NCBI GenBank assembly: GCA_049968235.1
Contig: JBMFRC010000003.1
Span: 64,001 to 128,000 of the forward strand
Source of the DNA: Candidatus Hydrogenedens sp.
Lineage (GTDB): Bacteria; Hydrogenedentota; Hydrogenedentia; Hydrogenedentales; Hydrogenedentaceae
Direction of reading: 5' to 3'
DNA: 64,000 nt
Below, one piece after another: positions 4,476 through 50,763 of this stretch (its first letter is position 1; each line of letters starts with the position of its first letter). A program made the position numbers and the translations under genes. The notes below the pieces were generated by a model. It was not told where the DNA came from. It saw only the letters and a list, made by a program, of their open reading frames with translations, and did not search any database.

Positions 4476-7001
4476 TTATTTCTTTAATCGAGCACTGCTC
4501 ATCATAAATAACAATATACCGATAAATATAAAATCAAACAGATATTTCAATAAGGAATTGTTGTTTAAGGATTTGTTTATACAGCCACAAACATTTGTTG
4601 CTCCAGTTTCTTCCTTACTGATATTTCCATCACCATTCGTATCTATTTGATTAAATATTTCATGGGTTAACCATGGATACACAATACTTAACTCATCCCA
4701 ACTTAACATATTATCGCCGTTCGCATCAAACAATGAAAACCGTTTCTTGAGTATATTCTTTAATTCCTTTAATGTCATTGGACATGTACCCGCAGAAACC
4801 GTAATATTAACTACTGATTCCGGCTCTACCTGAGTTCCTGCGGGTGGATATTGAGTTATGACATTGCCTGTAGCTATGTCATTACTACACTCCTGGGTAA
4901 CATCCCCAACCTTCAGGTTTGCAGATTTTATAACATTTTTTGCAGAATCCTGGTTCATACCAACTACATCCGGAACCACATTTAATCCGACATACTGAGA
5001 CACTAATTGTGGATAAGATTTATTTTCTTTTATATACCATACTTTTTCAAAATCCCAACCATTAAAAGTGGCTTGCTGTTTCATTTTTGCCGTTGTTTTA
5101 CCCGTGCCACCTGCAGAATTTTTTTGTCCGGAAGTCTCTGTGTCCCAATATGAATTACTTACCGTACCGGAATGGTTATATCCCAAAAGCCCCCCAATAT
5201 ACGAAGCCCCGGAAGAATTGGACACAGAACCTGCTGAATAACAATAATTTATTGTGCCTCTATAATTTCCACCTACCAGTCCACCACTGTATAGAACTCC
5301 TGAAACAGACCCTATGGCATAACAGTTGCTAATTTCATTATTATTCTCACCTACCAGACCACCAACATTTATATGTCCCTGAGTTGTAACCTCCGCACAA
5401 CAACTACTTGCCTTACCCGAATTTGAACCTATTGCCCCACCAATAGAACTATATCCTGTTACAGACCCCTCTGCATGACAACCACTTACTGTACCATAAT
5501 TCTGACCTGCTAATATGCCTATAGAAGAAATATTCGTATCCCCGGAAACAGAACCTTTTGCATGGCAATTACTCACAGTACCATAATTTCGTCCTATTAA
5601 TATACCGACGGAAGTGGAAGTAACAGAAAGAGTATTTGTATGTCCTGATACGGAACCTTCTACATAACAATTACTTACTGTGCCATAATTTTGTCCTGCC
5701 AATATACCCACGAAAGAAGAACCCGCGACAATAGCATTTTCTATACTTAAATTTTTAACCACACCTTTCATATCAATATAGCCAAAGAAACCAACATAGT
5801 TTTCAGAAGGACGATTTATCGTTAGACCAACTATTTTATGCCCTTTACCATCAAAATTGCCTTTGAATGGATGCTCTTTATCTGCCCCTATAGGAGGCAA
5901 ATCTATTCCTGCAACATTAATATCATTAATTAATTCATAATCGCCATTCAAAGGATAAATGTCCCCTATCTTTTGCAATTCCCCGACATTATCTACAAGG
6001 ATAGTCCCCGGATTAATATTTCGCAGGAAAGGATATTGATATGGATAGGAATACACATCACTGCTGACATAGATTCTCCAAACTGTTTCAAAATCCCAGC
6101 CCACATAAGTGTTCTTTAATTTCATTTCTTCCGCTGTTTTCCCTGTTCCCCCATCAGAAGCACTCTGTCCGGATGCTATTATGTCCCAGTAACAATTACT
6201 AACATAGCCACTTTCTTTCTTTGCAATAAGCCCGCCTGTTATATGTTCTTCCGTTGAAGTCGCTGTTGACCGAACAGTTCCTCGACAATAACAATTAGTT
6301 ACACCATTTTCATTGCTGTTATTGTAGCCAATAAGTCCCGCAACATAATTCTTCCCTGTAATAGAACTTGAACTGTAACTATTATCAACAGAGCCTATAT
6401 TTTCACCTATCAATCCGCCAACACGATTTATTCCTGTTATAGATGCAAGATTATAACACTGACTTACTGTTCCCAAATTTTGACCCGTAATACCGCCAAC
6501 ATAATCCGTTCCTTTTACCGTTCCGCTGTTAACACAACTCTGTAATACTACACCGAAATTCCGACCGACAATCCCACCAACATTTGAATTACCTTTAATT
6601 GATATATTTTCTAAACGGAGATTATGGACTTTCCCACCAGCATCAACATATCCAAATAATCCAATATCATCCTCATCTCCCCGCGATATAACAAGACCTT
6701 TTATCTTATATCCTTTGCCATTAAAATCACCTGTAAAAGGACTATTAAATGTTCCTATGGGTTTAAACCCCGCTTTATCATTCCAGGTCGATGTGCTACT
6801 TGCGTCAATATCTTCTGTCAATTCATATTCCGCACTTAACGGGTAATTTGCATCATTACCTATTTTCTGTAATTCCTCAATACTGTTTATCTGGATTACA
6901 GTTGCACCATAACTGTTTCCGAAATAGAAACTCATGCAAAAAATAAAAAATAAACAAAAGGGGAAATATATGGTCTTTTTTGAAAAACTTCGATTATTCA
7001 T
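4476..7001 (-). CDS. large secreted surface protein: duplicated N-terminal module + GLUG-type (VGG[IL]xGxNxGx[IV]xNCY) repeats + PASTA domain + two dockerin/EF-hand-like Ca-binding loops + C-terminal TM anchor
   Basis: Signal peptide MNNRSFSKKTIYFPFCLFFIFCMSFYFGNSYG with strong SD (AAGGAG) before ATG at 7001; repeats GGIVGRNFGVV..C, VGGLIGENIGSV; PASTA-like VVPDVVGMNQDSAKNVIKSANLKVGDVTQE; DANGDNMLSWDEL and DTNGDGNISKEE; C-terminal FDFIFIGILLFMMSSARLKK. Confidence 0.7.
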   Translation of the reverse strand: MNNRSFSKKTIYFPFCLFFIFCMSFYFGNSYGATVIQINSIEELQKIGNDANYPLSAEYELTEDIDASSTSTWNDKAGFKPIGTFNSPFTGDFNGKGYKIKGLVISRGDEDDIGLFGYVDAGGKVHNLRLENISIKGNSNVGGIVGRNFGVVLQSCVNSGTVKGTDYVGGITGQNLGTVSQCYNLASITGINRVGGLIGENIGSVDNSYSSSSITGKNYVAGLIGYNNSNENGVTNCYCRGTVRSTATSTEEHITGGLIAKKESGYVSNCYWDIIASGQSASDGGTGKTAEEMKLKNTYVGWDFETVWRIYVSSDVYSYPYQYPFLRNINPGTILVDNVGELQKIGDIYPLNGDYELINDINVAGIDLPPIGADKEHPFKGNFDGKGHKIVGLTINRPSENYVGFFGYIDMKGVVKNLSIENAIVAGSSFVGILAGQNYGTVSNCYVEGSVSGHTNTLSVTSTSVGILIGRNYGTVSNCHAKGSVSGDTNISSIGILAGQNYGTVSGCHAEGSVTGYSSIGGAIGSNSGKASSCCAEVTTQGHINVGGLVGENNNEISNCYAIGSVSGVLYSGGLVGGNYRGTINYCYSAGSVSNSSGASYIGGLLGYNHSGTVSNSYWDTETSGQKNSAGGTGKTTAKMKQQATFNGWDFEKVWYIKENKSYPQLVSQYVGLNVVPDVVGMNQDSAKNVIKSANLKVGDVTQECSNDIATGNVITQYPPAGTQVEPESVVNITVSAGTCPMTLKELKNILKKRFSLFDANGDNMLSWDELSIVYPWLTHEIFNQIDTNGDGNISKEETGATNVCGCINKSLNNNSLLKYLFDFIFIGILLFMMSSARLKK

Positions 7002-7534
7002 CAAACAGCTCCTTGTTATTAATAAAATTACATGCAATAAACGCAATCAAATACATAGCTCTATTTCGCAATATATCTCTTTTAATTTATAAAATATCTT
7101 GTTGCCTCGGACTATCTTTGTATTTTAATAAGAAAGAGGCAATCCGCTTAAAATTTAAAGAAATACTATCATAGTATTATTGAATAATATAATTCTATTT
7201 TCAACATTTTAGAGTGATAATGAAATGTTAAAACAAACAAAATATTAACGGCATCTTTTGTGTCTCCGCTGACTGAATATAAAAAGATGAGCAAATAAGA
7301 AAAAGTTGTATTGTTTATAAGATAAAATCATTACGCATGTTATAAACGGTATTGTTATTTTATAATATAATTCCCGCTGTTCGTTGATAATACTATGATT
7401 ATTTCATACATGCTATTACCATACGGTCATTGGGAAAGATAGTTCAGGTTGCAATTTGATAATCACATAGAATTGAAATTACACTTATTACAGATTTTTT
7501 GTGTTCTGGAAAGTTAAATATAAGGAATGGGAAA

Positions 7535-8578
7535 ATGAAAAATGTATTGTTGCACATCTTCTTTATCTTGATTTTATCCTGTATTGCGACAGCACAAAAT
7601 ACGGATGTAGGAAATGCATCAGGCACAACACCTCCAGGGTCAGAAACGGAATTAAAAATAGGGTTAATAGGACTGGATACTTCCCATGTCATTGCTTTTA
7701 CGCGATTATTTAATGACCCTAATAATCCGAAACATATTCCCGGTGCCAGAGTAACATTGGGGTATCGTGGAGGCAGTCCGGATTTAGAAGCGAGTTATAC
7801 ACGTGTGGATGGCTTTACGGAACGATTAAAAAAAGAATATGGCGTAGAAATTGTAAATACTATTGAAGAACTCTGTTCTCGTGTGGATGCTGTTATGTTG
7901 ACCAGTGTTGACGGTAGGGTGCATTTAGAACAAGTAAAACCTGTGTTTCAAGCCAAAAAACGGGTATTCATTGATAAACCATTGGCAGGTTCTTTGATAG
8001 ATGTCATAAAAATTGCACGGTTAGCGAAAGAAAATGATATTCCATGGTTTTCCAGTTCCTCCTATCGCTATTATTCCAGTTTAACAAAGTTACGCCAGCA
8101 GGACGTGGGTCCCATTCATACAGTTATTTCGTATGGACCCTGCCATTTAGAACCTCATCACCCTGATTTGTTCTGGTATGGTATACACCCTGCTGAAGCA
8201 TTGTACACCGTCATGGGAAGAGGTTGTGAAACCGTATCCCGTGTTAGCACAGCCGATACCGATGTGGTTACAGGTGTGTGGAAAGATGGGCGTGTTGGTA
8301 TTCTCGTTGGACTGAGAAAAGGACCTTTACCTCATCAGGTTATTGCTTTCGGTGAGAATGGAACTGCCTATCAGGAAGAAGGGGGCGATTATGCGGAATT
8401 GGCACAGGAAGTAATTAAATTTTTTAAATCAGGGGTGCCTCCTATCACACCGAAAGAAACCATCGAAATTTTTGCTTTCCTGGAATCTGCAGATGAAAGT
8501 AAACGACAAGAAGGCAAACCAGTACGATTGGAAGAAGTTATTGCAAATGCGGAAAAACAAATCGCCGAAGGCAAATAA
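7535..8578 (+). CDS. Gfo/Idh/MocA family oxidoreductase, secreted
   Basis: Signal peptide MKNVLLHIFFILILSCIATAQ after SD AGGAA; Rossmann KIGLIGLDTSHVIAF; RVFIDKPLA motif. Confidence 0.8.
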   Translation: MKNVLLHIFFILILSCIATAQNTDVGNASGTTPPGSETELKIGLIGLDTSHVIAFTRLFNDPNNPKHIPGARVTLGYRGGSPDLEASYTRVDGFTERLKKEYGVEIVNTIEELCSRVDAVMLTSVDGRVHLEQVKPVFQAKKRVFIDKPLAGSLIDVIKIARLAKENDIPWFSSSSYRYYSSLTKLRQQDVGPIHTVISYGPCHLEPHHPDLFWYGIHPAEALYTVMGRGCETVSRVSTADTDVVTGVWKDGRVGILVGLRKGPLPHQVIAFGENGTAYQEEGGDYAELAQEVIKFFKSGVPPITPKETIEIFAFLESADESKRQEGKPVRLEEVIANAEKQIAEGK

Positions 8579-10987: not shown

Positions 10988-11072
10988 TACACTTCGTATT
11001 CAAAAACTTATTATTCAAACATAACTCTTCTTTTTTCCCTACCTATTTCTTTATTACAAACTGTCCCATAGT

Positions 11073-11423
11073 CTAATCATTCTTTGCATCATATTTCTTT
11101 TCCAAAAATTTGTTTTTAAAATAAATCAAAGACAAAATGGGATGATACAAGAACATTCTGGGTCCGGAAAACCGCATTACTGTTTTAATACGCTCTTTAT
11201 GTTTCTTATCATAACAGTGGATATGGCAATTCTTGCAGGTAGGTTTATCTGGCATGAGAGGACATTTCTCAATACGTTTATAAGCATACTCTAAAAGTTC
11301 ATGGCACTCTCCACACACAGGATTTATATGATGAAACTTGCAATAAATTTCTATCATGCTTTTGATAGTTTTTTTCTCAAACTTTTCTCTACGAAGGTTC
11401 TTTCTATTTTCTTTTTTTCTCAT
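11073..11423 (-). CDS. nitrous oxide-stimulated promoter family protein (YgbA-like Cys-rich protein)
   Basis: Cys-rich pattern IEIYCKFHH..CGECHELLEYAYKRIEKCPLMPDKPTCKNCHIHCYDKKHKERIKTVMRFSGPRM matches this family's consensus as recalled. Confidence 0.55.
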   Translation of the reverse strand: MRKKENRKNLRREKFEKKTIKSMIEIYCKFHHINPVCGECHELLEYAYKRIEKCPLMPDKPTCKNCHIHCYDKKHKERIKTVMRFSGPRMFLYHPILSLIYFKNKFLEKKYDAKND

Positions 11424-11471
11424 TAGGGGTTAGTCCTTCCTTTTTATCGAGCCTGTCAGACCTGTCGGAGG

Positions 11472-12848
11472 CTACACCGTATAAACTGCTTTACAACGGG
11501 GACATATTACCTTCCTATTGTAACCCGGTGGGACTTTCAACGTTACTCCGCATTTACAGTTAAGGAAGGTATATTTCTGTGCCTTCATTATAGCATCACC
11601 ACTTAGACGTGCATTTTGAAGAGGTGTGGTAGAAACCTGCGACATGGTTGTCGTTGCGCTAGAAAGCGGATTTGCAGGAGGAGTAATAGCCCCTTTTGTC
11701 CATTTCTTCCCTTCGACTTCCTGCCATGCTTGTTCATAAGTAAGAAAAGGGCTTCTGGCAATATTTCGTAATATTTGTATCCGTCTTTGTAATGGTGGAT
11801 GTGTGCTAAAAATAGATGATGCATCGAGGTTCCGCGTCTCTAATGGATTTACGATATAAAGAGGGGCAATTATCTGGTTTACATCTGTAGCAGGTTGTTT
11901 TTGATAACGTTTTGCAATTGTTTCGAGAGCCGAAGCCAGTCCTTCCGGATTGCGTGTAAATACAACCGCTCCTGCATCGGCTAAGTATTCCCGCTGACGA
12001 GAACAGGCAAAATAAATAATTTGAGCAAGGAATGGTGCTATTAGTGATAGTAGTAGAGCAAAGATATAGACCAATATCAAAAATAGGATAATCCCACTTG
12101 TCTCCTTTCGATTGCGTCCACTATACCGTGCGGAACCATGAATCCCTGCTCCAACAATTTCACGCAGTCCCACAACCAGCAAAATAATAGTGCCGAGTGA
12201 TACCGCAAGCATGGTCATGTACAATGTGTCGCGGTGTGTAATATGACTAATTTCATGAGCAATAACACCCTGTATCTGGTCCCGGTTCATCGTGTTTAGC
12301 AATCCGCGGGTTACCGCAACAGCAGAATGTTCCGGCGACCGACCTGTTGCAAAGGCATTTATAGATGGGTCATCAATTACATATATCTCCGGCATCGCAG
12401 GAAGTCGCGAAGCAATTTTCATCTCCTCAACGATATTATATAACTGAGGATGGTCTACCTTTTCAATTTTAACAGCATTGCTGATGGATAAAAGCATATT
12501 TCCGCCGGAGTAGTAAGCAAACAACATTTGTATAAACCAGATTACAAATGCAACCAGAGCCCCGAGAGGTCCCCAATACAACCAGATAAAATACTGGACC
12601 TGCTCGTAAGTCAAATGATTTTCTTCAGACAGACGAGGAGAGTAATGATTGGGTGAGGAGTAAGGAGCGTATTGTTGGGTAGGATTATTTATTATCCTGT
12701 CATTGGCAAAGGCATAGGGTTCCGAGAAGTAATAGAAAACAAAAGCGAGAAACGAGCCAATAACATAGCCTATTAACAGCATGAAAATAAGCATAAGAAT
12801 GGCAAGTAAAATAGAACGGCGTTTGTTTTGACGGATAAGTTCAAACAT
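11472..12848 (-). CDS. M48 family metallopeptidase (HtpX-like) with C-terminal zinc-ribbon
   Basis: HExxH = AHEISHITHRD; third-ligand region SRQREYLADAGA; TM segments; C-terminal CKCGVTLKVPPGYNRKVICPRCKAVYTV. Confidence 0.8.
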   Translation of the reverse strand: MFELIRQNKRRSILLAILMLIFMLLIGYVIGSFLAFVFYYFSEPYAFANDRIINNPTQQYAPYSSPNHYSPRLSEENHLTYEQVQYFIWLYWGPLGALVAFVIWFIQMLFAYYSGGNMLLSISNAVKIEKVDHPQLYNIVEEMKIASRLPAMPEIYVIDDPSINAFATGRSPEHSAVAVTRGLLNTMNRDQIQGVIAHEISHITHRDTLYMTMLAVSLGTIILLVVGLREIVGAGIHGSARYSGRNRKETSGIILFLILVYIFALLLSLIAPFLAQIIYFACSRQREYLADAGAVVFTRNPEGLASALETIAKRYQKQPATDVNQIIAPLYIVNPLETRNLDASSIFSTHPPLQRRIQILRNIARSPFLTYEQAWQEVEGKKWTKGAITPPANPLSSATTTMSQVSTTPLQNARLSGDAIMKAQKYTFLNCKCGVTLKVPPGYNRKVICPRCKAVYTV

Positions 12849-20923: not shown

Positions 20924-22345
20924 TCAAAACACATGGATCCTTGGCTTTACCCGAATATGTGGAATTACCCTTTCATGTGTATCCATATACCACGCTAACA
21001 GTGCACATCGGTCTGCATCAATAATATGGTCATTCCCTTTCGAATACACATATTGCCCTTGAGCATTTAATACATAGGTGTGATTTGCATATTGTTGCTC
21101 CCGCTCTGCGCTTTTCGGAAATATAATTGTATGCTCCGCTAAACGCCGTTGTAGCAATTCCGTCATCCATTCTTTGGTTCGCCGTTTCTGAAGCACCCCA
21201 TTTGATAACTGCCCCGTTTCTATCATTCCTCCAAATTCGAACGCACAAACTCGATGTTCCCAATCCTTACCTGATGCCATTAATTGATGTGCCACCGCTC
21301 TACCACTATTCCCACAGTCAATCCCTATCTTACAAAAATGATAATGATTATCCAACTCTTGTATCGTCATCTGTTGCTGAACATAGTTTACATTCTCCAG
21401 ATGCATACGCAGTACACAAATCAAATACGGTGGTTCATTTTTAAAAACGATGAATTCAGAAGGGTCTCGCGAAAAGCCTAAATCACAGCCTAAATAATAC
21501 ATCCCCTTTTTTACAGGTTCCGGCAATTCCCATTTTATCTCTGACCCTTTAAGTCGAATCTCATTTGCCGGCAAACTATCATCAACGCAAAGGAGATAAT
21601 CGTCCAGATTAAACACCGCATTCATCGGTTCTCCATGCAATCCCAATACCCGATGTACATATCCTGGACTATCTCTCCCTCCGTACAACAAAGCCAGTTC
21701 AGCATCTTTCTCAGGGATAAAATCCGGATTAAGATAACTGGGCCAGTGATATTGTTCCGCCTCCGGTAAAAAAGTCATACGGTAAAATGTATTCCGAAGC
21801 CCATTCGGTACACCATAAACCCATCGTTTACCCCCACCTTTCAGGGATTGATACAATTCCCCCCAACTTGTTTCTGTCATTTCCTGTGCCTCATCTACAA
21901 TCTGCCAGTCCACATGCATCCCCTGAAAATTTATTCCACGCGGTCCTGCAATCCGACCCCATAGAGTAAATCCATTCACAAATCGTATGAAGTAGGAAGG
22001 GGAACGACGCAATTCTGCAATACCTCCTGCGAATTCCGTCGTTGTTTCAAAACGACGCACCAGTCGATTCATTACCGGGAACAAATGATTTTCACATTGT
22101 GTAGCAATTAACATGGATTTTCCCGGACAATTAACCATAGCCCAGCAGGCTATAATTTCTATTTCCGTCGTTTTCCCTACATCTCTTCCATCACAATGCA
22201 CCTTGCGTAATGCCTGTGATTCCAGAGAATTGCGTTGATAATTGCGAACTCGCCAATGCGTACCATCAACATTATGAAAGAAACGATATGCAAACAATTC
22301 CCGCCGTTGAAGTAACTGAATTAAAGTCTGTTTCAGAACGGACAC
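20924..22345 (-). CDS. phage terminase large subunit-like protein (ATPase + RNaseH-like nuclease)
   Basis: Walker A-like GRDVGKT, Walker B VDWQIVDEAQ, C-terminal acidic nuclease motifs GIDCGNSG and HIIDADRCAL. Confidence 0.6.
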   Translation of the reverse strand: MSVLKQTLIQLLQRRELFAYRFFHNVDGTHWRVRNYQRNSLESQALRKVHCDGRDVGKTTEIEIIACWAMVNCPGKSMLIATQCENHLFPVMNRLVRRFETTTEFAGGIAELRRSPSYFIRFVNGFTLWGRIAGPRGINFQGMHVDWQIVDEAQEMTETSWGELYQSLKGGGKRWVYGVPNGLRNTFYRMTFLPEAEQYHWPSYLNPDFIPEKDAELALLYGGRDSPGYVHRVLGLHGEPMNAVFNLDDYLLCVDDSLPANEIRLKGSEIKWELPEPVKKGMYYLGCDLGFSRDPSEFIVFKNEPPYLICVLRMHLENVNYVQQQMTIQELDNHYHFCKIGIDCGNSGRAVAHQLMASGKDWEHRVCAFEFGGMIETGQLSNGVLQKRRTKEWMTELLQRRLAEHTIIFPKSAEREQQYANHTYVLNAQGQYVYSKGNDHIIDADRCALLAWYMDTHERVIPHIRVKPRIHVF

Positions 22346-22392
22346 ACTACACTCCCCTGAATAAATAAAAATCAGAAATTAAAAAGACGCGA

Positions 22393-22896
22393 TTATTTTC
22401 CCGGTGGATACCACACCTTCACCTTTTTAGTTTGTCTTCCCCAACGCATTGCTTCTTTGTGTTTCTTAAAAAACAGGTCTATACTATTCCCTTTTACAGA
22501 ACCACCACGGTCTTCCACTCTGCCATAACCATAGCCCGGAATATACATAACCGTCCCAAAAGGGAAGCGACTTATATCGGCTGAAATGGTTCCCTTCTTT
22601 GCTTTAACACCACTGGCAGTCACACCTACTTTCTTGGGTTTCCCTTTATTAGGACCATGGGCAACTACCGGACGGAAATACCAATTCCTTTTCCAATTAC
22701 AGCATTTACCACATGGACAATACCCACGCGTTTCTAAAGTTAATATCTCGGAACGAGAACCCGCCTGAGGCTTAAATCGAGATGAAGTTGTAGCACAGCC
22801 CGCAGAAAAAAACAAGAATACTGTTAGCGTTAGTATCAAATATCGTCGAAGCATCTTTTCAATGTTCCTTATCCATTGTTTATTTACTTTAATCAT
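22393..22896 (-). CDS. 3D domain-containing lipoprotein (MltA-like cell-wall binding/hydrolase domain)
   Basis: Lipobox LFFSAGC; 3D-domain pattern ADISRFPFGTVMYIPGYGYGRVEDRGGSVKGNSIDLFF. Confidence 0.65.
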   Translation of the reverse strand: MIKVNKQWIRNIEKMLRRYLILTLTVFLFFSAGCATTSSRFKPQAGSRSEILTLETRGYCPCGKCCNWKRNWYFRPVVAHGPNKGKPKKVGVTASGVKAKKGTISADISRFPFGTVMYIPGYGYGRVEDRGGSVKGNSIDLFFKKHKEAMRWGRQTKKVKVWYPPGK

Positions 22897-22929
22897 ATCC
22901 TTTACTATTCTATCAAATTTGTTGAATGA

Positions 22930-23433
22930 TTAATTATCTTGATTCACAAGAATTTCTTCTTTACTTCCCACGACTAAATTCTTTTGCATCGTTCCATTGC
23001 CTTTCTCCAATTCGTGCATACAACACACCAAATCCTGAACAAGTTCCGCAATACTCATAGAAGATGTTTTTGCTTCCACTGGCTTGATATTTTCAAATTC
23101 CTGCACCAACTTGCGTTGCCGTTCCATATATTTACATAAAATCTCATAATATTGTAAAGAATGGTTTGTCTTTTCTGTTTTTTTGGAAGATTCTATACAC
23201 ACATCTTCCTTTTTAGACATCAGTGGAGATAATAGGAATTCCTGTTCCAGCCTCTGGATAAAAAAAGTGAGTATAAGCAATTCTCGCAAACGCACTTGTA
23301 GCCAAGGTGATATTTCAATTCCATTATTCTGAAACCACACTTGCAGTGCTCTATATTTTTCTCGCCATTGCCGTTTTTCATATGGCGTTAGCCATGCTTC
23401 ACCTTTTTCAATAGAATAAAATATCGAGTCCAT
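22930..23433 (-). CDS. hypothetical protein (position upstream of terminase large subunit; small-terminase-like by position only)
   Basis: Co-oriented with the 3D-domain and terminase genes; no recognisable motif. Confidence 0.35.
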   Translation of the reverse strand: MDSIFYSIEKGEAWLTPYEKRQWREKYRALQVWFQNNGIEISPWLQVRLRELLILTFFIQRLEQEFLLSPLMSKKEDVCIESSKKTEKTNHSLQYYEILCKYMERQRKLVQEFENIKPVEAKTSSMSIAELVQDLVCCMHELEKGNGTMQKNLVVGSKEEILVNQDN

Positions 23434-23792
23434 AAAAATCTCCTATTATCTTTTATTGATATCTCTAAAAATATAGGAAAAAATTTTGCCCTGAAAAGCA
23501 GATAAACCTTTGACATATTTGAAGGAACACTTCCTTGCGATAAGTTATATATGATTTGCAGAAAAAGAATATAAGTCCAACACAATGATATTGAAATTCT
23601 ATTTATTTAGCATGCCAGCGGGATTATGAAACACGATATTTTAACATATATTAATATTATAATGTAATGTAATTGTATGCATACAAATATCACTCATTTA
23701 TAAAAAATAAATATCATATAATAAAGATAGAATAATTTGAATAACTTTACTTTTAATATGTATTTATTATTTAAATAATTATTAAAATTTAC

Positions 23793-23821
23793 TTGACAAA
23801 TAAAAATATATTTATTATAAT
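23793..23821 (+). promoter_or_regulatory. consensus sigma70 promoter TTGACA-17 bp-TATAAT with AT-rich UP-like region upstream
   Basis: TTGACA at 23793-23798, 17-nt spacer, TATAAT at 23816-23821; about 100-nt leader before the pilin-like gene (SD AGGAG). Confidence 0.6.
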
Positions 23822-23929
23822 TATCCCGTAACTACAATTTAATATTTTCGTTATATTCATGTGCCCTGCATGAATAAGGATTAAATCAATCAAAGGGTTT
23901 TCAGGGCAAACCCAAGAAGGAGTTCTAAT

Positions 23930-24940
23930 ATGAGTAAAAAAGGATTCACACTCATCGAATTGCTGGTAGTCATAGCGATTATTGGCATTCTTGCGGCAAT
24001 TCTGTTGCCGGCACTTGCTCGTGCGAGGGAAGCAGCGCGTAGAAGTAGTTGTCAGAACAACCTTAAACAATGGGGACTGGTCTTCAAGATGTATTCCAAT
24101 GAATCGAAAGGAGAACGGTTCCCGCCGATATGTCTTACAGCAGACCAACGAATGAATTGTAATGTCTATCCGTTTACACTGGAAGGTTCCTATGGAATTA
24201 TTGCAGCTGGACCCAATCCGAAAGTCCTTTATCCGGAATATTTAACCGATTTAAATATTATATTCTGTCCTTCGGATTCGGCAGAGAAACCCGGACTTCA
24301 ATTTAATCCTGCAGCACAAGCGGCAGGTGTTGAACTGACAGATGTAAATATCCCGTGTAATGATGCAGTTCGTGGTATGTCTATAATAGATTCCAGTTAT
24401 AACTATGTGGGTTATGTTCTTGACCTCTGTAATGCGGATGGCACAGACCCGTTGACAGATATATCAGGATTGGCAACACTGGTAGGTGCTACAGGAGTTA
24501 CAGGAATGGGACCTGCGCAGTTGGTTGCAGCAATGCTGGTTGTATTACAGGCATACATTAACAACCCTGTAACTGGCGCCCAAAGGGCAGACGAGGACCT
24601 GGATGTAAGTTCATATGCAAATTTAGGAACACCTCCCGGACCTGTAGGTAATGGCAGACAAAATACGATATATCGGCTTCGTGAAGGTATTGAACGTTTC
24701 TTAATTACTGATATTAACAATCCTGCTGCTTCTGCCAAAGCCCAGAGTGAGACATGGATTATGGCGGATACAATCGCAACAGAAGTTGGACATTACAACC
24801 ATATTCCGGGTGGTTCAAATGTCCTCTACATGGATGGTCATGTTGAATTTATGCGTTATCAGGAAACAGGGGAACAGCCGGTTAATGGCGCGGTTGCTCG
24901 TGTCGTAGGACTGATACTAAATTCAGAGAATTTAATATAG
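23930..24940 (+). CDS. DUF1559 / H-X9-DG family prepilin-type N-terminal cleavage/methylation domain protein (type II pseudopilin-like)
   Basis: N-terminus [47 protein letters not shown]; C-terminal [17 protein letters not shown]. Confidence 0.85.
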
Positions 24941-27137: not shown

Positions 27138-27213
<76 letters not shown>

Positions 27214-27223
27214 ATTTTTTTAT

Positions 27224-27299
27224 AGGGCCGTTAGCTTAGCTGGTAGAGCAGGGGACTCTTAATCCCAAGGTCGCAGGTTCGATTCCTGCACGGCCCACC
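27224..27299 (+). tRNA. tRNA-Lys (anticodon CTT)
   Basis: Near-identical backbone to E. coli tRNA-Lys as recalled (GGGTCGTTAGCTCAGTTGGTAGAGCAG...GGTCGCAGGTTCGAATCCTGC...CCACCA); anticodon loop CTCTTAA. Confidence 0.85.
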
Positions 27300-27636
27300 A
27301 GTTTGTGAAATCTACACGGTGAATATACCGTTCCCACCTTTTAGCATGTGTAGTAATACCTCCCTTATTTTTCAGTGTAATTATCTTAACAAAAGCAGAA
27401 AATTTTTGGGGAAATAGAAATATATAACATAGACAGGTATGTAGATATTACATTTTTGTTCGCTTTATTTGTAGATGAAAAATAAATAAATGTAAAATAA
27501 ACAGGGGTACAAATACCCCTCTGTAAATACAATGCAAACGAAACTGTTGCAACTTATCTCTTTACAAAAGGATAATATTAATATAGTTTAATGAACTACC
27601 TATTTTCACAAATAGCATAAAAAAGGAAATTGTTGC

Positions 27637-44534: not shown

Positions 44535-45192
44535 TACAACTATTCTGTTTATGCTTTAATAATTAGATGAAAATTTAATATTGATGCTTAAATAATTTAT
44601 CCTATCTATCCTGCCTATTTCATTTTTCCAATCTACCCCCTATCACGAAATAATCCTTACCTGCCTACCACATTTCATTTCTATTCTTTTCGCCAGCGAA
44701 ACACTGATCATACTCCCCAAAACACAAGATAATTGCCAATAATAACCTCCATAACAACAAATCATTCACCCATTCAGATATTTTTATTTATTCCATCACG
44801 ACATTTTCTATACATGCAAAATAATGTATAGGCGAAATATTTTCTCCCCATTCTTGTAATTGTGATTTATTCATTGGCTTTGTGAGGGCATGTGTGTTTG
44901 GGGGATTACAATGATTGGATTCATTATTTGTATGTTCCGATTTTATACCGGACAGATACATACAGGCACATGTAAAACTGAGGATTTATTAGAGCAAATA
45001 ATTATAAGTCCCTCCCAAAAGACACATTTGCCATGCAGGCGGGGTTGGGATGCGACTATAAAAACCGCCCGTCTGGCAAGACTTTCAGTGGAGGTGATGT
45101 AAGGAGGTTGAAGTTTTTTGTTATCAGGTGTTTAAGTTAGGTGGAGGGCAAAGATTGTGCTTTATTTATAGAGGATATTTTTGTAAGAGGGT

Positions 45193-46464
45193 ATGGATAT
45201 GATACGAGGTATTTTTTCGGATTATCGTTGGCGGAACTGGTTTCGGATATTTTTTTCTTCGCGTGAGAATTCGAAGATGAGGTCGAGGTCGGTTTTGCGT
45301 CGTTCTCTTGTTTTCAACGCGCCGAATGGTTATTTACAGGGTTTTGTTCCGCTTCCGGATAATGTTCCCTTTCAGATGTTAGAGGTGTATCGTTATCTTC
45401 GGGATAATATTCCGGATTTGTCTGATGCGGTGTGGACATGGAAACGGTTATGCAATACGGGTTTTAGGCTTTCATGGTCGGAGAGAGTATCGGAATCGTT
45501 AAAACGGGATGGACAGGTAATTATTGAACAGTTGAATCGTCGCATGAATCATGGTGAAGGTGGTTTGACGCATCTGTTGGATATTTTGTATACATCCTTG
45601 TTTACATATGGTGCTTCTGCTATAGAAATTGTATTTTCGCCGCGAGGGAGTCAGATTTATGATGTGGTTCCGGTGGATGTATGGACGGTTCGTTTTCGTT
45701 GGGAGGATGGGGATTGGCAGGCGTATCAGGTGTATGCGGAAGAGGTGATACGGCTCCCTCGCGAACGGTTTGTGTATATTGCTCTGGACCGTGATGGAAC
45801 CAATCCGTATGGTCGTTCTTTATTTCGTTCTCTACCTTTTGTGGTACGGATACAACAGCGGTTAATGGAGGATATGTCTCGTGCTATGCATAATGCGGGT
45901 TGGGCTCGTATGCATGTGCAGTATAAGCCTGAACCGCGTGGGACGGATGAAACGGAGGAGGAGTATCAGAGTCGTTTGGATGCAAATTTAGAGCAGGTGC
46001 GGAATCAGATGAGTAATTTGGGGGTAGACCAGAATGTTGTTACTTTTGATAATATTGGCATATCGGTTGTTCAGGGGGCACAGCGTTTTTCGGCGTATTA
46101 TGAAACACAGCGTGCTATTGAGGAACAAATCATTACGGGTGCGCATATGATGCCTATTTTGTTGGGTCGGAATTATGGGACGACGGAGACTTACGGCACG
46201 GTGCAATATGAAATCATGAATCGACAGGTGGATACCATTAATCAATATTTAGCTCGTGTTCTGGAACGGATATATCGTCTGGAATTGTCGATGCATGGGA
46301 TAGAGGCGGAATTTACTGTGCAACCCCAATCGAATAGCACTGCGGATACGGTTAAAAAATCTTTAATAGAAACGAGACGAATTAATACGCTTCTTCAATT
46401 AGTACAATCGGGAATCATTTCTAAGGAAGATGTGCGTAAGGAAGTAGAAGAGATTTTACATTAG
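45193..46464 (+). CDS. putative phage portal-like protein (first gene of phage-head-like module)
   Basis: 423 aa, Arg-rich N-terminus; position at head of a tightly packed SD-rich operon with a capsid-like gene, M15 peptidase and holin-like gene; no definitive motif. Confidence 0.35.
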   Translation: MDMIRGIFSDYRWRNWFRIFFSSRENSKMRSRSVLRRSLVFNAPNGYLQGFVPLPDNVPFQMLEVYRYLRDNIPDLSDAVWTWKRLCNTGFRLSWSERVSESLKRDGQVIIEQLNRRMNHGEGGLTHLLDILYTSLFTYGASAIEIVFSPRGSQIYDVVPVDVWTVRFRWEDGDWQAYQVYAEEVIRLPRERFVYIALDRDGTNPYGRSLFRSLPFVVRIQQRLMEDMSRAMHNAGWARMHVQYKPEPRGTDETEEEYQSRLDANLEQVRNQMSNLGVDQNVVTFDNIGISVVQGAQRFSAYYETQRAIEEQIITGAHMMPILLGRNYGTTETYGTVQYEIMNRQVDTINQYLARVLERIYRLELSMHGIEAEFTVQPQSNSTADTVKKSLIETRRINTLLQLVQSGIISKEDVRKEVEEILH

Positions 46465-46508
46465 GATAAGGTTTTAAGTTTGATTTAACGAACAGAGGAG
46501 GCTTTTTT

Positions 46509-47225
46509 ATGGGTATGCTTGAAAGGCTGTGTTTTTGTGAGCGTTTGGGTGAAGTGGTAAACAACCATTCCGGATTTGCTTCTGAGGGATGGGATAGAGA
46601 AGCGGAGTTATCTGAGATTAATCGTTATACTTTGCGGTCGTTAACAGAGGATGAATATGTTGTTTTTACACTGGACCTTTGCCATAATCAGATTGACCGT
46701 CATTTCAGTTGTTTTCCGGAGAATGAACTGGAAGTGATAGATAAGAAGGTGCCGGGCAGACCTTTAATGGAACGGCACGATTTAAGGGGATCTCTACCGC
46801 GAGGGACTTTTTTCTATTCCCGTCTTCATCGGCAGGGAGATGTTCTATCGGTTCGACCTAAGGTTTATGTATTGAGATTGGAGGAGAATCGGAATTTCAT
46901 TGCCAATATTGAGGGAGGTATTTACAGGGAAACTTCCATTGGTTTTTCTTTTTTATTTCCGGAATGTTCCATTTGTGGTCGTGATATACGGCGCTGTGTG
47001 CATGTTCCTGGTGAGAAATATGAGGGTTCTCTGTGTTTTTATCGTATGCGGGGTGTTCAGGATGTATTGGAGGGGTCTGTGGTAGCGTGTGGTTCACAGG
47101 GCACTTCGTTTGTATCAGATGTGCGAGCACACATATTAGAGCAATTTGGTGAAAAGGGAGGGATTCTGCTTCAACGGAGTTATTTTGGTGGGATGGATAA
47201 AAATAAGGCATGGTGTAAGGAATAG
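46509..47225 (+). CDS. hypothetical Cys-rich protein (position of head maturation protease/scaffold)
   Basis: SD GAGGAGG; CFCERLGE and CSICGRDIRRCVH clusters; no clear catalytic motif. Confidence 0.3.
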   Translation: MGMLERLCFCERLGEVVNNHSGFASEGWDREAELSEINRYTLRSLTEDEYVVFTLDLCHNQIDRHFSCFPENELEVIDKKVPGRPLMERHDLRGSLPRGTFFYSRLHRQGDVLSVRPKVYVLRLEENRNFIANIEGGIYRETSIGFSFLFPECSICGRDIRRCVHVPGEKYEGSLCFYRMRGVQDVLEGSVVACGSQGTSFVSDVRAHILEQFGEKGGILLQRSYFGGMDKNKAWCKE

Positions 47226-47273
47226 GTTTTCAATGAATACAAAAGGCGATAGAACAAGAGAGGAGGTGATTTT

Positions 47274-47471
47274 ATGCTCAGACCATCCACGGTAGCCAGG
47301 CGGAGAAGTAAGTATGATGCGATAAATAATTTATGTGAAGATGTAAGCGAATTGCGGGAGCGTATTTTGCGGTTGGAGCAGTCGTTATTTCGTGGGCTAT
47401 GGCTTTTGATAGCCAATCTGCTTGGGGTTGTGTTTTCTTTAATACAACAGGGGATATTTTTAAACCATTGA
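47274..47471 (+). CDS. small protein with coiled-coil N-terminus and hydrophobic C-terminus
   Basis: SD GAGGAGG 6 nt upstream; ELRERILRLEQSLF then LWLLIANLLGVVFSLI. Confidence 0.3.
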   Translation: MLRPSTVARRRSKYDAINNLCEDVSELRERILRLEQSLFRGLWLLIANLLGVVFSLIQQGIFLNH

Positions 47472-47488
47472 AGAAAGGAGGTGGTTTT

Positions 47489-48214
47489 ATGTTTTGCAGG
47501 ATGATAGAGCATCAAGGAGAAATCCCTGTGGATGTTCCGCTTCATTCCGAAGGTCGTTTTGTGGTTCATGCGCATAAGGACCGGCAGGGTCATCATCTTG
47601 ACTTGCGGATAGAACAGAGGGGCTATCTTCTTGGCTGGCGAATTGATGATACCGAATTACGAAGTGAACTTTGGGGAACGGAGAAACTTCCTCATGACTT
47701 TTCGTGGCTGGATGAGGAAAGACCGGAGGGAACAGGAGTTACGGGTGATTATCGCTGGTTCAGTCAGGGTGATGGAAATGGTTATCTGAATTTGCGGATG
47801 AGTAATAATGAGCAACGCACATATCGTGTGGAGCGATGGGGCGGTTTTTCCATTCGTTTTCAGCGGGCATTGTGGCAAAGTATGCGGAAGTGGCAATTAT
47901 CGCCTTTACAGGTTCTTTCTGTTGTAGAAGATGGGATTAATGCCCGTGAATACGCAATTCGGCGGATATGTGGTTTAGGCAGGTTTCTTGAAGGGGAAAA
48001 TTTTGATGCATCCCAATGGGAAAAGGTTTTATTGCGGTGTTCGTTAAATGAAATCTATGCCCATTTAAGGAAATGGGAAAACCGTCTGGAAAGTCAAAAC
48101 CCACCCCAAAGAATTTCACAGCCGGAAAAGGTTGATGAAGTTTGTGTAGAAAAAGGGAATTTACGAACAAAGCCTGACCTGTTAAATTTAGTGCGTGGTC
48201 AGGGGAAAGTATAA
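47489..48214 (+). CDS. LigD 3'-phosphoesterase (PE) domain-like protein with C-terminal extension
   Basis: SD GGAGGTGG; RFVVHAHKDRQGHHLDLRIEQRGYLLGWRI and KLPHDFSWLDEE match the LigD-PE motifs HxH..H.D.R.E / DHP.DY as recalled. Confidence 0.4.
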   Translation: MFCRMIEHQGEIPVDVPLHSEGRFVVHAHKDRQGHHLDLRIEQRGYLLGWRIDDTELRSELWGTEKLPHDFSWLDEERPEGTGVTGDYRWFSQGDGNGYLNLRMSNNEQRTYRVERWGGFSIRFQRALWQSMRKWQLSPLQVLSVVEDGINAREYAIRRICGLGRFLEGENFDASQWEKVLLRCSLNEIYAHLRKWENRLESQNPPQRISQPEKVDEVCVEKGNLRTKPDLLNLVRGQGKV

Positions 48215-48242
48215 ATAACAGGAAGAAGAAAGGAGGCAAATT

Positions 48243-48623
48243 ATGGCATTTGGAGATATTGGTGGGACATATACCGAGTTGATTATTACATGTAGCACAC
48301 CAGAAACGGGACCTGTAAGTATCCGTCGTGGTGATGCACTGAAACTTATCGGAGGGTATGTGGTAACGAATACTTTTACCGGAGAGGATGTCATTTTCGG
48401 GCAGGCAATGAATGATTGTAATGTGAATGATACCGCTATCCCTGTAAAGGTGCGAGGTATATGCATTTTTGAGTATGAGGGAGTTCCGCCCACAGTAAAT
48501 GGAGTGCAAGGGATTGCGGGTTCGACTACTCCGGGTAAAGTGAAAGCACCTGCGTCCGGGAATGGTTCTGGCAGGGTAGTGAAAACAGAATCTTCTATAA
48601 ATCGGGTCCATGTATTGCTTTAA
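48243..48623 (+). CDS. small Gly/Val-rich protein (DUF2190 / head-decoration-like by size and composition)
   Basis: SD AAAGGAGG; 126 aa; GGYVVTNTF..GQA...VKVRGICIFEYEG..NGVQGIAG. Confidence 0.3.
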   Translation: MAFGDIGGTYTELIITCSTPETGPVSIRRGDALKLIGGYVVTNTFTGEDVIFGQAMNDCNVNDTAIPVKVRGICIFEYEGVPPTVNGVQGIAGSTTPGKVKAPASGNGSGRVVKTESSINRVHVLL

Positions 48624-48640
48624 CAGGAAAGGAGGTTATT

Positions 48641-49690
48641 ATGATGTTATCCATGCAGACAAAATTGACAGAACAGATGCAGTTTCTGTCACAGCCCAAA
48701 GAGAAATTATTATCCATACGCGGGAAGGAATTGTATGAGACATTAAATTCTTTAGGTCTAACCCATACTCAATTTTTCCGTGCTATTGGGACAGATATTG
48801 AGGAATATTGTGCTCGTGAGTTTGGTGTTGATTTATACCAGATTACGGTGGAGCGTTTTTTCCAGACAGACCCTAATGCGAAATGGCTTTTTCCGGACCT
48901 GGTTCGAGAGTCGGTTATTTCAGGGATGACGGGGAAGCCTGTATATTCACAATTGATAATTCGGGATGAGCGTATAGAGAGTGCGGTCTATGATGTGCCA
49001 TATGTTAAGGAGTCGGAGGAAGAGGAAGAACTACGGAATGTCGGCGAAGGAGCGGTTATTCCGGAATCGGAAATAAGGTACGGGAATCGAATTATCCAGT
49101 TACAAAAATTGGGGCGTGGCATTTTAGCGTCGTATGAGGTTATCCGCCGTATGTCTGTGGATATGTTGCGGGTTCATCTTCGTCGGATGGGTGAATGTCT
49201 TGGCAGAAATCTGGATAAACGGCTTGCGTATGTGCTGGCTTATGGGGATATGTCTGGGGAAACAAGTCCGGATGTGCTGAATACGGAGACTGCTAATATA
49301 TGGAAATATACAGACCTCGTCCGTGCTTTCTTGCATTTAACTACGAAGAATTTTTTTCATCCGACGCATCTGCTTGCGAACTCCGATACGATGGAAAAGA
49401 TAATGTCGTTGCCGGAGATTACCGATTCTGCATTGTTTGATTTTGCGAAATCGGGCAATTTGCCGACACCTTTGGGAGTAAAATTGGTGCCCATGTCTGA
49501 CCATCCGGAAAATTGTTTTACTTTACTGGATTCTCGCTATGCAGTCCAGAAGTTAACGGAACAAGATGTGCTTGTAGAAAGTGACCGCCTGATACATCAA
49601 CAATGGGACCGTAGTTATCTTACGGTGGTAACAGATTTCGCCATTATTTATCGAAAGGCGCGTGTGGTTATGCGTTGTGACTGGAGTTAA
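48641..49690 (+). CDS. putative major capsid-like protein
   Basis: SD AAGGAGG; 349 aa; follows the decoration-like gene in canonical head-gene order; no confirmable motif. Confidence 0.3.
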   Translation: MMLSMQTKLTEQMQFLSQPKEKLLSIRGKELYETLNSLGLTHTQFFRAIGTDIEEYCAREFGVDLYQITVERFFQTDPNAKWLFPDLVRESVISGMTGKPVYSQLIIRDERIESAVYDVPYVKESEEEEELRNVGEGAVIPESEIRYGNRIIQLQKLGRGILASYEVIRRMSVDMLRVHLRRMGECLGRNLDKRLAYVLAYGDMSGETSPDVLNTETANIWKYTDLVRAFLHLTTKNFFHPTHLLANSDTMEKIMSLPEITDSALFDFAKSGNLPTPLGVKLVPMSDHPENCFTLLDSRYAVQKLTEQDVLVESDRLIHQQWDRSYLTVVTDFAIIYRKARVVMRCDWS

Positions 49691-49766
49691 TCATACATTG
49701 GAAAAATAATCGGGAGAGGCTTGTAAGTTGTTTTTAACTTATAAGCCTCATCAGGAAAGGATAATT

Positions 49767-50237
49767 ATGAGGGATAGAAATAATGTGCATCTTGCTATTG
49801 AATTCGATGGAAGATGGCTAATAACCCACTTTAATTTGAAAGAGTTTGAGAATAAAAAGGGCTGGGTGATGATACACCGTTCGGTGATTATTTCTCTGAC
49901 AAAAATTCGCGAAGAACTGGGTCGATACTTTGGTGAAGAAGTGGAAATTGTAATAACTGATTCAACACGCACACCTGAGCAATTGCAAGTTTTAGGTGAA
50001 AAATTGGGCTGGATTGATGAAGGTGGTGTAGTTGCACGAAATTCAAAGCATCTGGAAGAATTTGGAGGGATTGCGGTGGATTTCTATGTGCGGTTTAAGC
50101 AAAGCAAGAAACGGATAGATTCATCGACTATTGAAACGATATGTAAAAAGTATTTTGATTATGTTAAATCGGATTATGCGGATGGGCATATTCATGCGGA
50201 TAATCGAGAACATATAACCAACACATGCAAGAAATAA
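49767..50237 (+). CDS. peptidase M15A-like (hedgehog/DD-peptidase fold; endolysin-like)
   Basis: SD AGGA then ATG (MRDRNN); motif ITDSTRTPEQLQVLGEKLG...NSKHLEEFGGIAVDF fits SxHxxGxAxD; later GHIHADNREH. Confidence 0.5.
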   Translation: MRDRNNVHLAIEFDGRWLITHFNLKEFENKKGWVMIHRSVIISLTKIREELGRYFGEEVEIVITDSTRTPEQLQVLGEKLGWIDEGGVVARNSKHLEEFGGIAVDFYVRFKQSKKRIDSSTIETICKKYFDYVKSDYADGHIHADNREHITNTCKK

Positions 50238-50252
50238 GGAGGCGGAAATAGG

Positions 50253-50630
50253 ATGATTCTCAGTATACCTATGTTAGACCAATTTCTTTTTTATTTGATA
50301 ACTGGTGTGTTCGGATGCATCTGGGCAGTTATGCGTGTTTATGAGATTTACCAGCAAATTAAAAATTCACGGTATCGCCTGGCACTAACAATAATTGAAA
50401 GTGCGGTGCAGAAGACTTATGATACCTATACACGGGAGATAAAGAAGGCACGCGAAGACGGAAAATTAACACCGGAAGAACGAAAAAAGGCGTTTGAATT
50501 GGCAATGCAAACCGCTTTAGAGATGGCACGAGGGGAAAATATAGAATTGTATAAGATTCTACGGAAGGAACTTCTACCTTACTTTATTCATAATGCATTG
50601 CAGAAATTGAAGTTGCGAAGAGCCAGGTAA
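50253..50630 (+). CDS. small membrane protein, holin-like
   Basis: SD AAGGAGG; single N-terminal TM FLFYLITGVFGCIWAVM then charged cytoplasmic tail; follows the peptidase gene. Confidence 0.35.
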   Translation: MILSIPMLDQFLFYLITGVFGCIWAVMRVYEIYQQIKNSRYRLALTIIESAVQKTYDTYTREIKKAREDGKLTPEERKKAFELAMQTALEMARGENIELYKILRKELLPYFIHNALQKLKLRRAR

Positions 50631-50667
50631 GGGTCAGAGTAATCAGACAGGTTAGATAGGGACACAA

Positions 50668-50699
50668 AGACAGGTTGCATAAGCAACCTGTCTTTTTAT
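50668..50699 (+). terminator. rho-independent terminator closing the phage-like operon
   Basis: AGACAGGTTGC-ATAA-GCAACCTGTCT followed by TTTTT. Confidence 0.75.
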
Positions 50700-50763
50700 G
50701 ATAATATATTTTCGGATTCTTTTATGGAATAAAGTGAACATGAAAAATAAGAAAGGAAAATTT

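Follow-up and report, generated by a model that had tools for sequence, protein, structure and literature searches.

We examined an operon of eight genes (45193-50630, plus strand) in a 64,000-nucleotide stretch of Candidatus Hydrogenedens sp. (GenBank assembly GCA_049968235.1, contig JBMFRC010000003.1, positions 64,001 to 128,000 of the forward strand; this whole stretch is referred to as the window). The operon is probably one half, for head and lysis, of a phage-derived particle system, domesticated and passed on vertically in the candidate phylum Hydrogenedentota, that resembles a gene transfer agent (GTA), and not a prophage. The element is larger than the head operon and includes a terminase operon located 23 kb upstream. 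The remaining doubt falls mostly on the cargo and role of the particle, not on its functional, host-inherited status. Literature searches for Hydrogenedentes or Hydrogenedentota together with GTA, capsid or prophage returned no description of the module, and it is probably a previously undescribed GTA-like system. A preliminary description of the operon, made from the letters of the window, had offered a domesticated GTA-like element, a satellite or a decayed prophage as candidates; the comparative data strongly favour the first.

The module is widespread and uniform in layout. We found 359 homologues of the capsid protein in the databases. The best 120 are 62-91% identical to it and 341-352 amino acids (aa) long, nearly all of them 347-352 aa; the named homologues come from metagenome-assembled genomes (MAGs) of Hydrogenedentes/Hydrogenedentota, on contigs of up to 540 kb. 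The module was found in at least 106 GTDB species-representative genomes, nearly all labelled Hydrogenedentota, with capsid identities of 58-91%. For comparison, we kept 80 loci from GTDB species representatives, among which no genome is repeated, plus 68 metagenome loci from JGI (single loci are designated by L numbers). Across both sets the gene order is fixed: portal, prohead protease (g2), a small protein (g3), a two-domain protein (g4), a Gly/Val-rich head protein (g5), major capsid protein, a tail-like block of four genes (a 138-aa, a Dit-like, a 579-aa and a 173-aa protein), M15 peptidase and holin-like protein. Gene lengths are tightly conserved across loci, and no internal stop was present in 87 capsid, 87 g5, 61 Dit or 52 173-aa protein copies. 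The module is thus conserved in related genomes, a point raised in the preliminary description. Its locus is shared with L009 and L010, but the flanks differ between lineages.

Within the Hydrogenedentota the module appears to be inherited vertically. Over 49 loci, the G+C content of the module follows that of its flanks between 40 and 70% (r = 0.97) and is on average 1.9 points higher. Capsid and GH2 identities between the window and four relatives were 90.8/90.7, 87.4/85.8, 87.4/85.6 and 79.7/77.2%, an agreement within 2.5 points that holds even with GH2 on the other side of the module. TerL behaves in the same way, at 64-66% identity against 63-65% for the capsid in matching genome pairs. 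Nucleotide synteny with L009 and L010 forms one block that starts at 45111, runs through the module and continues in host genes to 53663. The flanks consist of housekeeping genes that vary by lineage (LptE/holA, rplJL, GH2, proteases, HSP20 and others), and in six lineages the 10 kb to each side of the module contained no integrase or replication Pfam domain. The higher G+C content noted at the outset is real but mild (0.429 for the operon against 0.389 for the remainder of the window), and it does not mark a recent horizontal import, because the +1.9-point offset recurs across host lineages and the G+C content of the module tracks that of the host. The distinct composition is a property of the genes and not a sign of recent arrival.

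The genes are also under purifying selection. Ratios of nonsynonymous to synonymous substitution rates (dN/dS) for the window genes were 0.04-0.12 at dS of 0.6-3 in comparisons with L009 and L010, including 0.10 for the portal (window versus L009) and 0.08 for g3. The tail-like genes gave mostly 0.07-0.3, and one g5 comparison gave 0.62.

A few hosts carry other labels: Nitrospirales from one MAG project, one Bathyarchaeia and one Planctomycetota. L013, L022, L023 and others contain a full Hydrogenedentota-type module under the labels uncultured Nitrospirales/Nitrospiraceae, and L064 (DATKVG010000194.1, labelled Bathyarchaeia archaeon) has a portal and capsid 93-95% identical to those of the Hydrogenedentota MAG L067. 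These stray labels are probably labelling or binning noise, with mis-binning or placeholder taxonomy the likely cause for the off-label contigs.

Genes and signals of the head operon

The open reading frame (ORF) listing of the window confirms eight co-oriented genes, g1 to g8, all on the plus strand. The gaps between them are 44, 48, 17, 28, 17, 76 and 15 nt. The range of 15-48 nt given in the preliminary description therefore holds if the peptidase gene begins at a TTG alternative start (49728), which shortens the 76-nt gap to 37 nt, and is otherwise 15-76 nt. AGGAGG-type ribosome-binding sites, described as nearly universal, precede six of the eight genes, those of the portal and peptidase genes being weaker. 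The intrinsic terminator (50666..50701, plus strand) is as clean as had been stated: a 13-bp hairpin at 50666-50695 is followed by a U-run, with a folding energy of -20.6 kcal/mol and a z-score of -7.1 against shuffled sequences. Folding confirmed this terminator, although a consensus terminator scanner gave no call at it. It falls within the gap ahead of the true GH2 start at 50764. The longest GH2 ORF has its ATG inside the terminator tail (50698-50763 region), but that upstream start is probably not used because identical database gene calls begin 22 codons later, at 50764. These calls give a GH2 protein of 592 aa, and the start at 50764 gives it a signal-peptide-like N-terminus. On the other side, the reported 650-bp non-coding spacer upstream of the operon is present, and close relatives share just its final ~80 bp.

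Head-forming proteins were assigned at three positions. The portal (g1, 423 aa, 45193..46464) matched Pfam PF06074 Portal_Mu at 2.3e-10, above cut-off, and PHROG 3753 (portal) at 6.3e-51. The major capsid protein (g6, 349 aa, 48641..49690) matched PF25209 at 1.9e-7, also above cut-off, and PHROG 3922 at 3.7e-45; its profile aligns over the full length with HK97 gp5 structures (E 1.5e-3). The portal-like and capsid-like calls both stand. The product of g2 (238 aa, 46509..47225), previously listed only as Cys-rich, was assigned as a putative prohead maturation protease by fold matches to T4 gp21 and herpes assemblin, and it bears an invariant CxxC...CxH cluster. Pfam had no matches for g2, g3, g5 and g8, nor for the g2 and g7 families, and profile searches against PDB sequences returned nothing usable for g2, g5, g7 or the 138-aa and 173-aa tail-block proteins.

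The gene list of the preliminary description overlooked g4 (241 aa, 47489..48214; the longest ORF begins at 47399) as a phosphoesterase-like scaffold protein. As a single sequence, g4 had no Pfam or PHROG match and its search fell short of LigD. A profile of the family, which is confined to 48 clusters (proteins of about 230-246 aa) in a set of 1.84 billion representatives, matched structures of the phosphoesterase (PE) domain of LigD over the first ~110 residues (3p43 at 1.7e-7, 3p4h at 3e-5, 3n9b and 2lj6). The motif H..HxDxR..H is conserved as H36, H43, D45, R47 and H76; the position that we take to be that of the LigD catalytic Tyr appears to be Trp in the g4 family. The N-terminal half is described as LigD-type 3'-phosphoesterase-like. 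In one clade (L016, L017, L023, L025 and L029), the protease continues in frame into the C-terminal half of g4, and both the PE domain and g3 are missing; because of this fusion, the C-terminal half would appear to behave as a scaffold or capsid-targeting domain. The fusion echoes the protease-scaffold fusion of Bacillus phage vB_BcM_CUBc25. An example lies at 8465-9532 of L016, and L163 has one too.

The remaining genes encode small structural or lysis candidates. The product of g3 (65 aa, 47274..47471), with an N-terminal coiled coil and a C-terminal transmembrane (TM) helix at aa 39-57, is weakly XhlA/hemolysin-like (PHROG 1193 at 4e-3) and occurs in 50 of the 64 loci that have both portal and capsid; its function is putative. 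By comparison g5 (126 aa, 48243..48623), a decoration or cement candidate with a match to PHROG 4588 (virion structural protein) at 1.2e-3, is present in all 64 and nearly always 126 aa long, and phage CUBc25 has a 129-aa gene at the equivalent position. The preliminary M15 peptidase call was borne out by a fold match for g7 (156 aa, 49767..50237), a putative endolysin whose LAS fold carries the His/Asp/His zinc ligands of LAS/MEROPS M15 enzymes. An alternative assignment of g7 as LytTR, from a Pfam match above cut-off, was set aside since it occurred in 1 of 13 family members and is at odds with the fold. The one-TM holin-like call for g8 (125 aa, 50253..50630) likewise holds, through a weak match to PHROG 13712 (holin, 4.3e-5), an N-terminal TM helix at aa 11-29 and a charged helical tail; g8 stands directly after the peptidase or the tail block in most loci.

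Tail-like block and terminase operon

In most lineages, the four genes of the tail-like block lie between the capsid and M15 genes. The Dit-like protein was assigned through PF22768 and PHROG 33. The 579-aa protein contains a central staphylococcal-nuclease (SNase)-like domain with the catalytic-type motifs DGDT...RL..D.PE and R..GR and a PDB profile match at E of about 1e-6; faint Pfam SNase matches are also on record. Copies of its gene lie at 12267-14006 in L003, 12246-13985 in L163 and 12242-13981 in L164, and the gene is absent from the window. Exactly these four genes are missing from the clade of the window (L004-L014 and L091; Candidatus Hydrogenedens), and the 64 kb contain no homologue of any of them, so that the delivery apparatus of a GTA is lacking here and present in most other lineages. 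A second, unrelated clade (L069, L077, L078 and L092) is also tail-less. In a capsid tree rooted with a phage, this second clade nests among tail-bearing lineages, which argues that the block was lost at least once and probably twice. The tail-less state is derived in the clade of the window and not inherent to the element. Both tail-less clades stay under purifying selection, with dN/dS of 0.08-0.25 in the second (L069 versus L077/L078).

A relocated tail block in the Hydrogenedens clade was considered and not found: none is in the window, and the 68 metagenome loci with the 579-aa gene are all full modules of at least 55% G+C, in a scan by exact peptide patterns that a diverged relocated copy could escape. 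The particle of this clade would be either tail-less or completed by further genes.

No tail, integrase or replication gene adjoins the operon in the window, as had been stated, but the preliminary description overlooked the terminase operon (20924-23433, minus strand). Its last gene encodes TerL (473 aa, 20924..22345), located with proteins of a related locus and 64-66% identical to the TerL that adjoins the module in L001 and L079. TerL matched PHROG 2 (TerL) at 3.2e-21 and, weakly, PDB entries for P74-26 and G20c TerL, in both the ATPase and the nuclease domain; it retains intact Walker A, Walker B and nuclease motifs. At 0.29, the coding-strand GC skew of the head operon is the maximum of the window, and TerL is the only gene with a comparable value (0.25). 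The TerL gene and head operon have matching G+C contents of 0.428-0.429, and the skew of all other window genes ranges from -0.11 to 0.21.

Upstream of TerL in the same operon are a lipoprotein with a 3D domain (22393..22896, minus strand; PF06725 at 7.7e-14), MltA/RlpA-like and peptidoglycan-directed, and as the first gene that of a 167-aa protein, X167 (22930..23433, minus strand). The lipoprotein may be a second cell-wall enzyme of the particle system. Its gene lies between X167 and TerL in the window and in L006 (19765-20232), and beside the portal in L019 (2903-3268). In L006 the whole trio of X167, lipoprotein and TerL is 8 kb from the head module, and the X167 homologue there is 54% identical and in the equivalent position. 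X167 had no family match and did not resemble the ORF that precedes TerL in L079; its position would fit a conserved small terminase, and this assignment was not adopted. Between the terminase operon and a divergently oriented prepilin-type gene (23930-24940) lies a very A+T-rich spacer of ~500 bp (23434-23929; G+C of 0.30 on a 1-kb scale).

The two operons share a promoter-like bipartite motif. One copy, GGGCAAA-N10-TATTTATAGAG (45146..45173, plus strand), lies 20 nt upstream of the portal start, and the second, GGGCAAA-N11-TATTTTTAGAG (23463..23491, minus strand), ~30 nt ahead of the gene that opens the terminase operon. The pattern GGGCAAA-N10/11-TATTT[AT]TAGAG has exactly these two copies in the 64 kb; 0 are expected from 100 shuffles. 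It is kept upstream of the portal in L006-L010 and L091, and L006 has a degenerate copy at the equivalent place before its terminase operon. In the high-GC clades, a related motif, [GT]GCAAC-N12-15-TATAG, precedes the portal in 17 of 62 loci, compared with a rate of 1.8% in background windows. We infer from these patterns that the two operons may form one regulon under an alternative, possibly extracytoplasmic function (ECF)-like promoter. A sigma-54 promoter (GG-N10-GC) was rejected for the motif upstream of the portal, its -12 GC not being conserved in L004 and L006. The two-copy motif could define a regulon and may lead to the sigma factor or regulator.

Proposed mechanism, rival explanations and known systems

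A GTA-like system of this kind would work as follows. A host-controlled alternative promoter would turn on both operons together. Portal-based assembly of the procapsid would follow, scaffolded by the C-terminal g4 domain, which may at the same time bring the N-terminal 3'-phosphoesterase-like domain into the shell, and the g2 protease would mature the shell. TerL would package DNA, and mostly host DNA because there are no replication or excision functions and the genes are split between loci. The holin-like protein and M15 peptidase would lyse the producer cell, and where the block is present a short Dit-based tail or delivery structure would attach. Staphylococcal-type nucleases leave 3'-phosphate ends, which the LigD phosphoesterase removes, and we speculate that the SNase-like and phosphoesterase-like domains are functionally linked; the phosphoesterase-like domain is dispensable in one clade. 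It is conceivable, though we would put it forward only tentatively, that the system is not simply another GTA: the LigD-type phosphoesterase borne on the scaffold and the nuclease in the tail hub would form a built-in pair that cuts and heals DNA ends, and the tail-less, DNA-filled capsid, retained with its lysis cassette under strong selection in at least two clades, would have a host function of its own.

Several points weigh against reading the module as a GTA-like system. The system is known from MAG sequence, and its particles, packaged DNA and transfer are predictions. The delivery device appears to be missing exactly in the clade that holds the operon of the window, and none of the genes could be recognised as a small terminase, head-tail adaptor, tail tube or tape-measure protein. 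Of 42 tail-bearing loci, just 20 gave a match for the M15 gene. The shared promoter-like motif is a sequence pattern, and by inspection no clear copy was found upstream of TerL in the high-GC loci L001 and L079. The locus scans were pattern-based, so that divergent copies can escape them.

The loss of the tail-like block gives room for another explanation, which we regard as rather unlikely: that a portal-bearing capsid is kept for a host role besides tail-mediated gene transfer, such as DNA export or release of extracellular DNA, DNA storage, or a compartment delivering the g4 phosphoesterase-like enzyme, with the tail block as an optional accessory. Two separate clades dropped exactly the four tail-like genes while keeping the others intact (dN/dS 0.04-0.25), TerL is retained in the tail-less window and L006, and the scaffold protein incorporates an enzyme-like domain. 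However, tail genes too diverged for the pattern scan could lie elsewhere, the PE domain is dispensable in one clade, and the retained TerL and lysis genes fit a released, DNA-filled particle equally well. The HK97-fold shell, together with an enzyme domain that could serve as cargo and is joined to a scaffold or targeting domain, would also suit an encapsulin-type nanocompartment, in which the shell surrounds enzyme cargo and no nucleic acid. This is a very improbable reading, since an encapsulin shell has no portal or packaging motor and here the portal, the prohead protease, a TerL with intact ATPase and nuclease motifs and the lysis cassette are all conserved. We know of no described encapsulin system with a portal, prohead protease, terminase or lysis cassette.

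Two further explanations rest on mobile or decaying phage DNA. Capsid-forming phage-inducible chromosomal islands (cf-PICI) consist of a tail-less head module (portal, protease and capsid) whose capsids need a tail from elsewhere, and the module, with portal, protease and capsid and no tail, superficially resembles them. Yet cf-PICI have an integrase, regulators, replication genes, att sites, usually their own small terminase and a variable presence, and none of these was seen in the flanks of the module in six lineages. A mobile satellite of this type, or a widespread and repeatedly acquired temperate phage of the Hydrogenedentota, is very unlikely: the six lineages show no integrase, primase/replicase or regulator up to 10 kb from the module, the 80 loci come from 80 different genomes, divergence equals that of adjacent host genes, G+C is host-like from 40 to 70%, and TerL occupies a separate chromosomal locus. 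The flanks are housekeeping genes, and host synteny continues directly from the module. In favour of a phage, IMG/VR lists two short contigs, the only module fragments there (7.7 kb each), and an apparently induced provirus was reported in a Hydrogenedentes MAG in a study of prophage induction in anaerobic digesters ('Candidatus Hydrogenedentes sp. 066', virus/host coverage ratio of 94, cellulose-fed sample; PMC9377139), which could be either the module or a true phage. The satellite of the preliminary description is contradicted by the co-divergence with host genes and by the absence of integrase or replication genes. Its decayed prophage can draw on the partial phage gene set at the locus, with no integrase, replication or tail genes nearby, but it is contradicted by eight intact ORFs out of eight, dN/dS of 0.04-0.2 across more than 80 loci, a gene order and gene lengths shared by more than 80 species-level genomes, and the 87 capsid copies free of internal stops. 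A decaying or cryptic remnant without present function is extremely unlikely.

The nearest phages, Bacillus phage vB_BcM_CUBc25, Flavonifractor phage Cormatin and uncultured gut phages (capsid 25-32%, protease 25-35% identity), share the head order of portal, protease or protease-scaffold, small protein and capsid. They differ in being complete (35-47 kb), equipped with replication genes, full tails and a terminase that adjoins the head genes, and in having no protein with the phosphoesterase-like domain. The PE domain of bacterial and archaeal LigD ligases for non-homologous end joining aligns with the N-terminal ~100 aa of g4, with H..HxDxR and a downstream His conserved; unlike LigD, g4 is a stand-alone protein of ~240 aa in a capsid operon.

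Among GTAs, the module is like the alphaproteobacterial type I GTAs, RcGTA of Rhodobacter capsulatus and relatives, in being a caudoviral structural cluster with no replication or integration genes, inherited vertically under purifying selection and dispersed over loci. The essential genes of RcGTA are spread over several loci, its particles are released by an endolysin and a holin, and its expression is under host control. The module capsid belongs to PF25209 and its portal fits Portal_Mu best, whereas those of RcGTA presumably fall into other HK97-type capsid and portal families, a distinction by family and not by direct sequence comparison. The module is also a much smaller cluster (8-12 genes) in a different host phylum, has TerL outside the cluster and no recognised tube, tape-measure or head-tail connector genes, carries a phosphoesterase-like domain in its scaffold and a nuclease-like one in its hub, and has lost the tail block in some clades. 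We know of no GTA with such enzyme-like DNA-end domains in its structural proteins; these domains suggest that DNA-end chemistry is tied to packaging or delivery.

Kogay et al. (2022; PMC9662315) assessed three GTA groups that were exapted independently and whose genetic basis is established, and set out the criteria for GTAs and viriforms used here. Reports of a few other GTAs exist. Read from its genomic sequence, the module appears as a GTA/viriform by those criteria. It has structural genes derived from tailed phages (portal, prohead protease fold, HK97-type capsid and TerL, with Dit in relatives), it is transmitted vertically under purifying selection (GH2-matched identity, G+C r = 0.97, dN/dS of 0.04-0.3 nearly throughout), and it has no means of self-propagation (no replication or integration domains within 10 kb in six lineages, TerL 23 kb away). 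The promoter-like motif shared by the two operons is a hint of induction by host regulators. Bartonella BaGTA and Brachyspira VSH-1 are independently exapted GTAs, so domestication has been repeated in unrelated bacteria (PMC9662315). Both have a proven function and a range limited to one genus or family, whereas the Hydrogenedentota module is computational and, by its labels, phylum-wide; it would be a further independent case beside them.

If the GTA-like reading is true, a further GTA is conserved across an uncultured candidate phylum, as labelled, that is often met in anaerobic digesters and sediments. This would extend the known range of virus domestication, and a compact system of 8-12 genes would suit reconstitution. 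Tailed and tail-less lineages provide a natural experiment on the purpose of the particle. Virus-prediction tools will flag the module as a provirus in Hydrogenedentota MAGs, which can distort virus-host statistics.

Variant loci and neighbouring features

Some loci depart from the common layout. L028 contains an extra gene (6801-8474) between the protease and g3 for a 557-aa secreted, Gly/Thr/Ser-rich, fibre- or beta-helix-like protein, and similar insertions of 1.5-2 kb occur in L031, L037, L054, L055, L065, L067, L068, L070, L074, L075 and L088. L051 has a second g5-like copy (7246-7599) straight after the portal and a 1.5-kb insertion (11029-12577) between the capsid and 138-aa protein genes. 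In L106 the capsid match falls into two overlapping pieces (7441-8483), which suggests a frameshift or an assembly error.

Exact-sequence database look-ups of the portal and capsid proteins of the window found no identical entries. The neighbouring genes are 100% identical, and the capsid gene 99.7%, to those of Candidatus Hydrogenedens sp. MAGs, and the closest species representative is Ca. Hydrogenedens terephthalaticus. Elsewhere in the window, genes for tRNA-Gly(GCC) and tRNA-Lys(CTT) lie side by side at 27139-27300.

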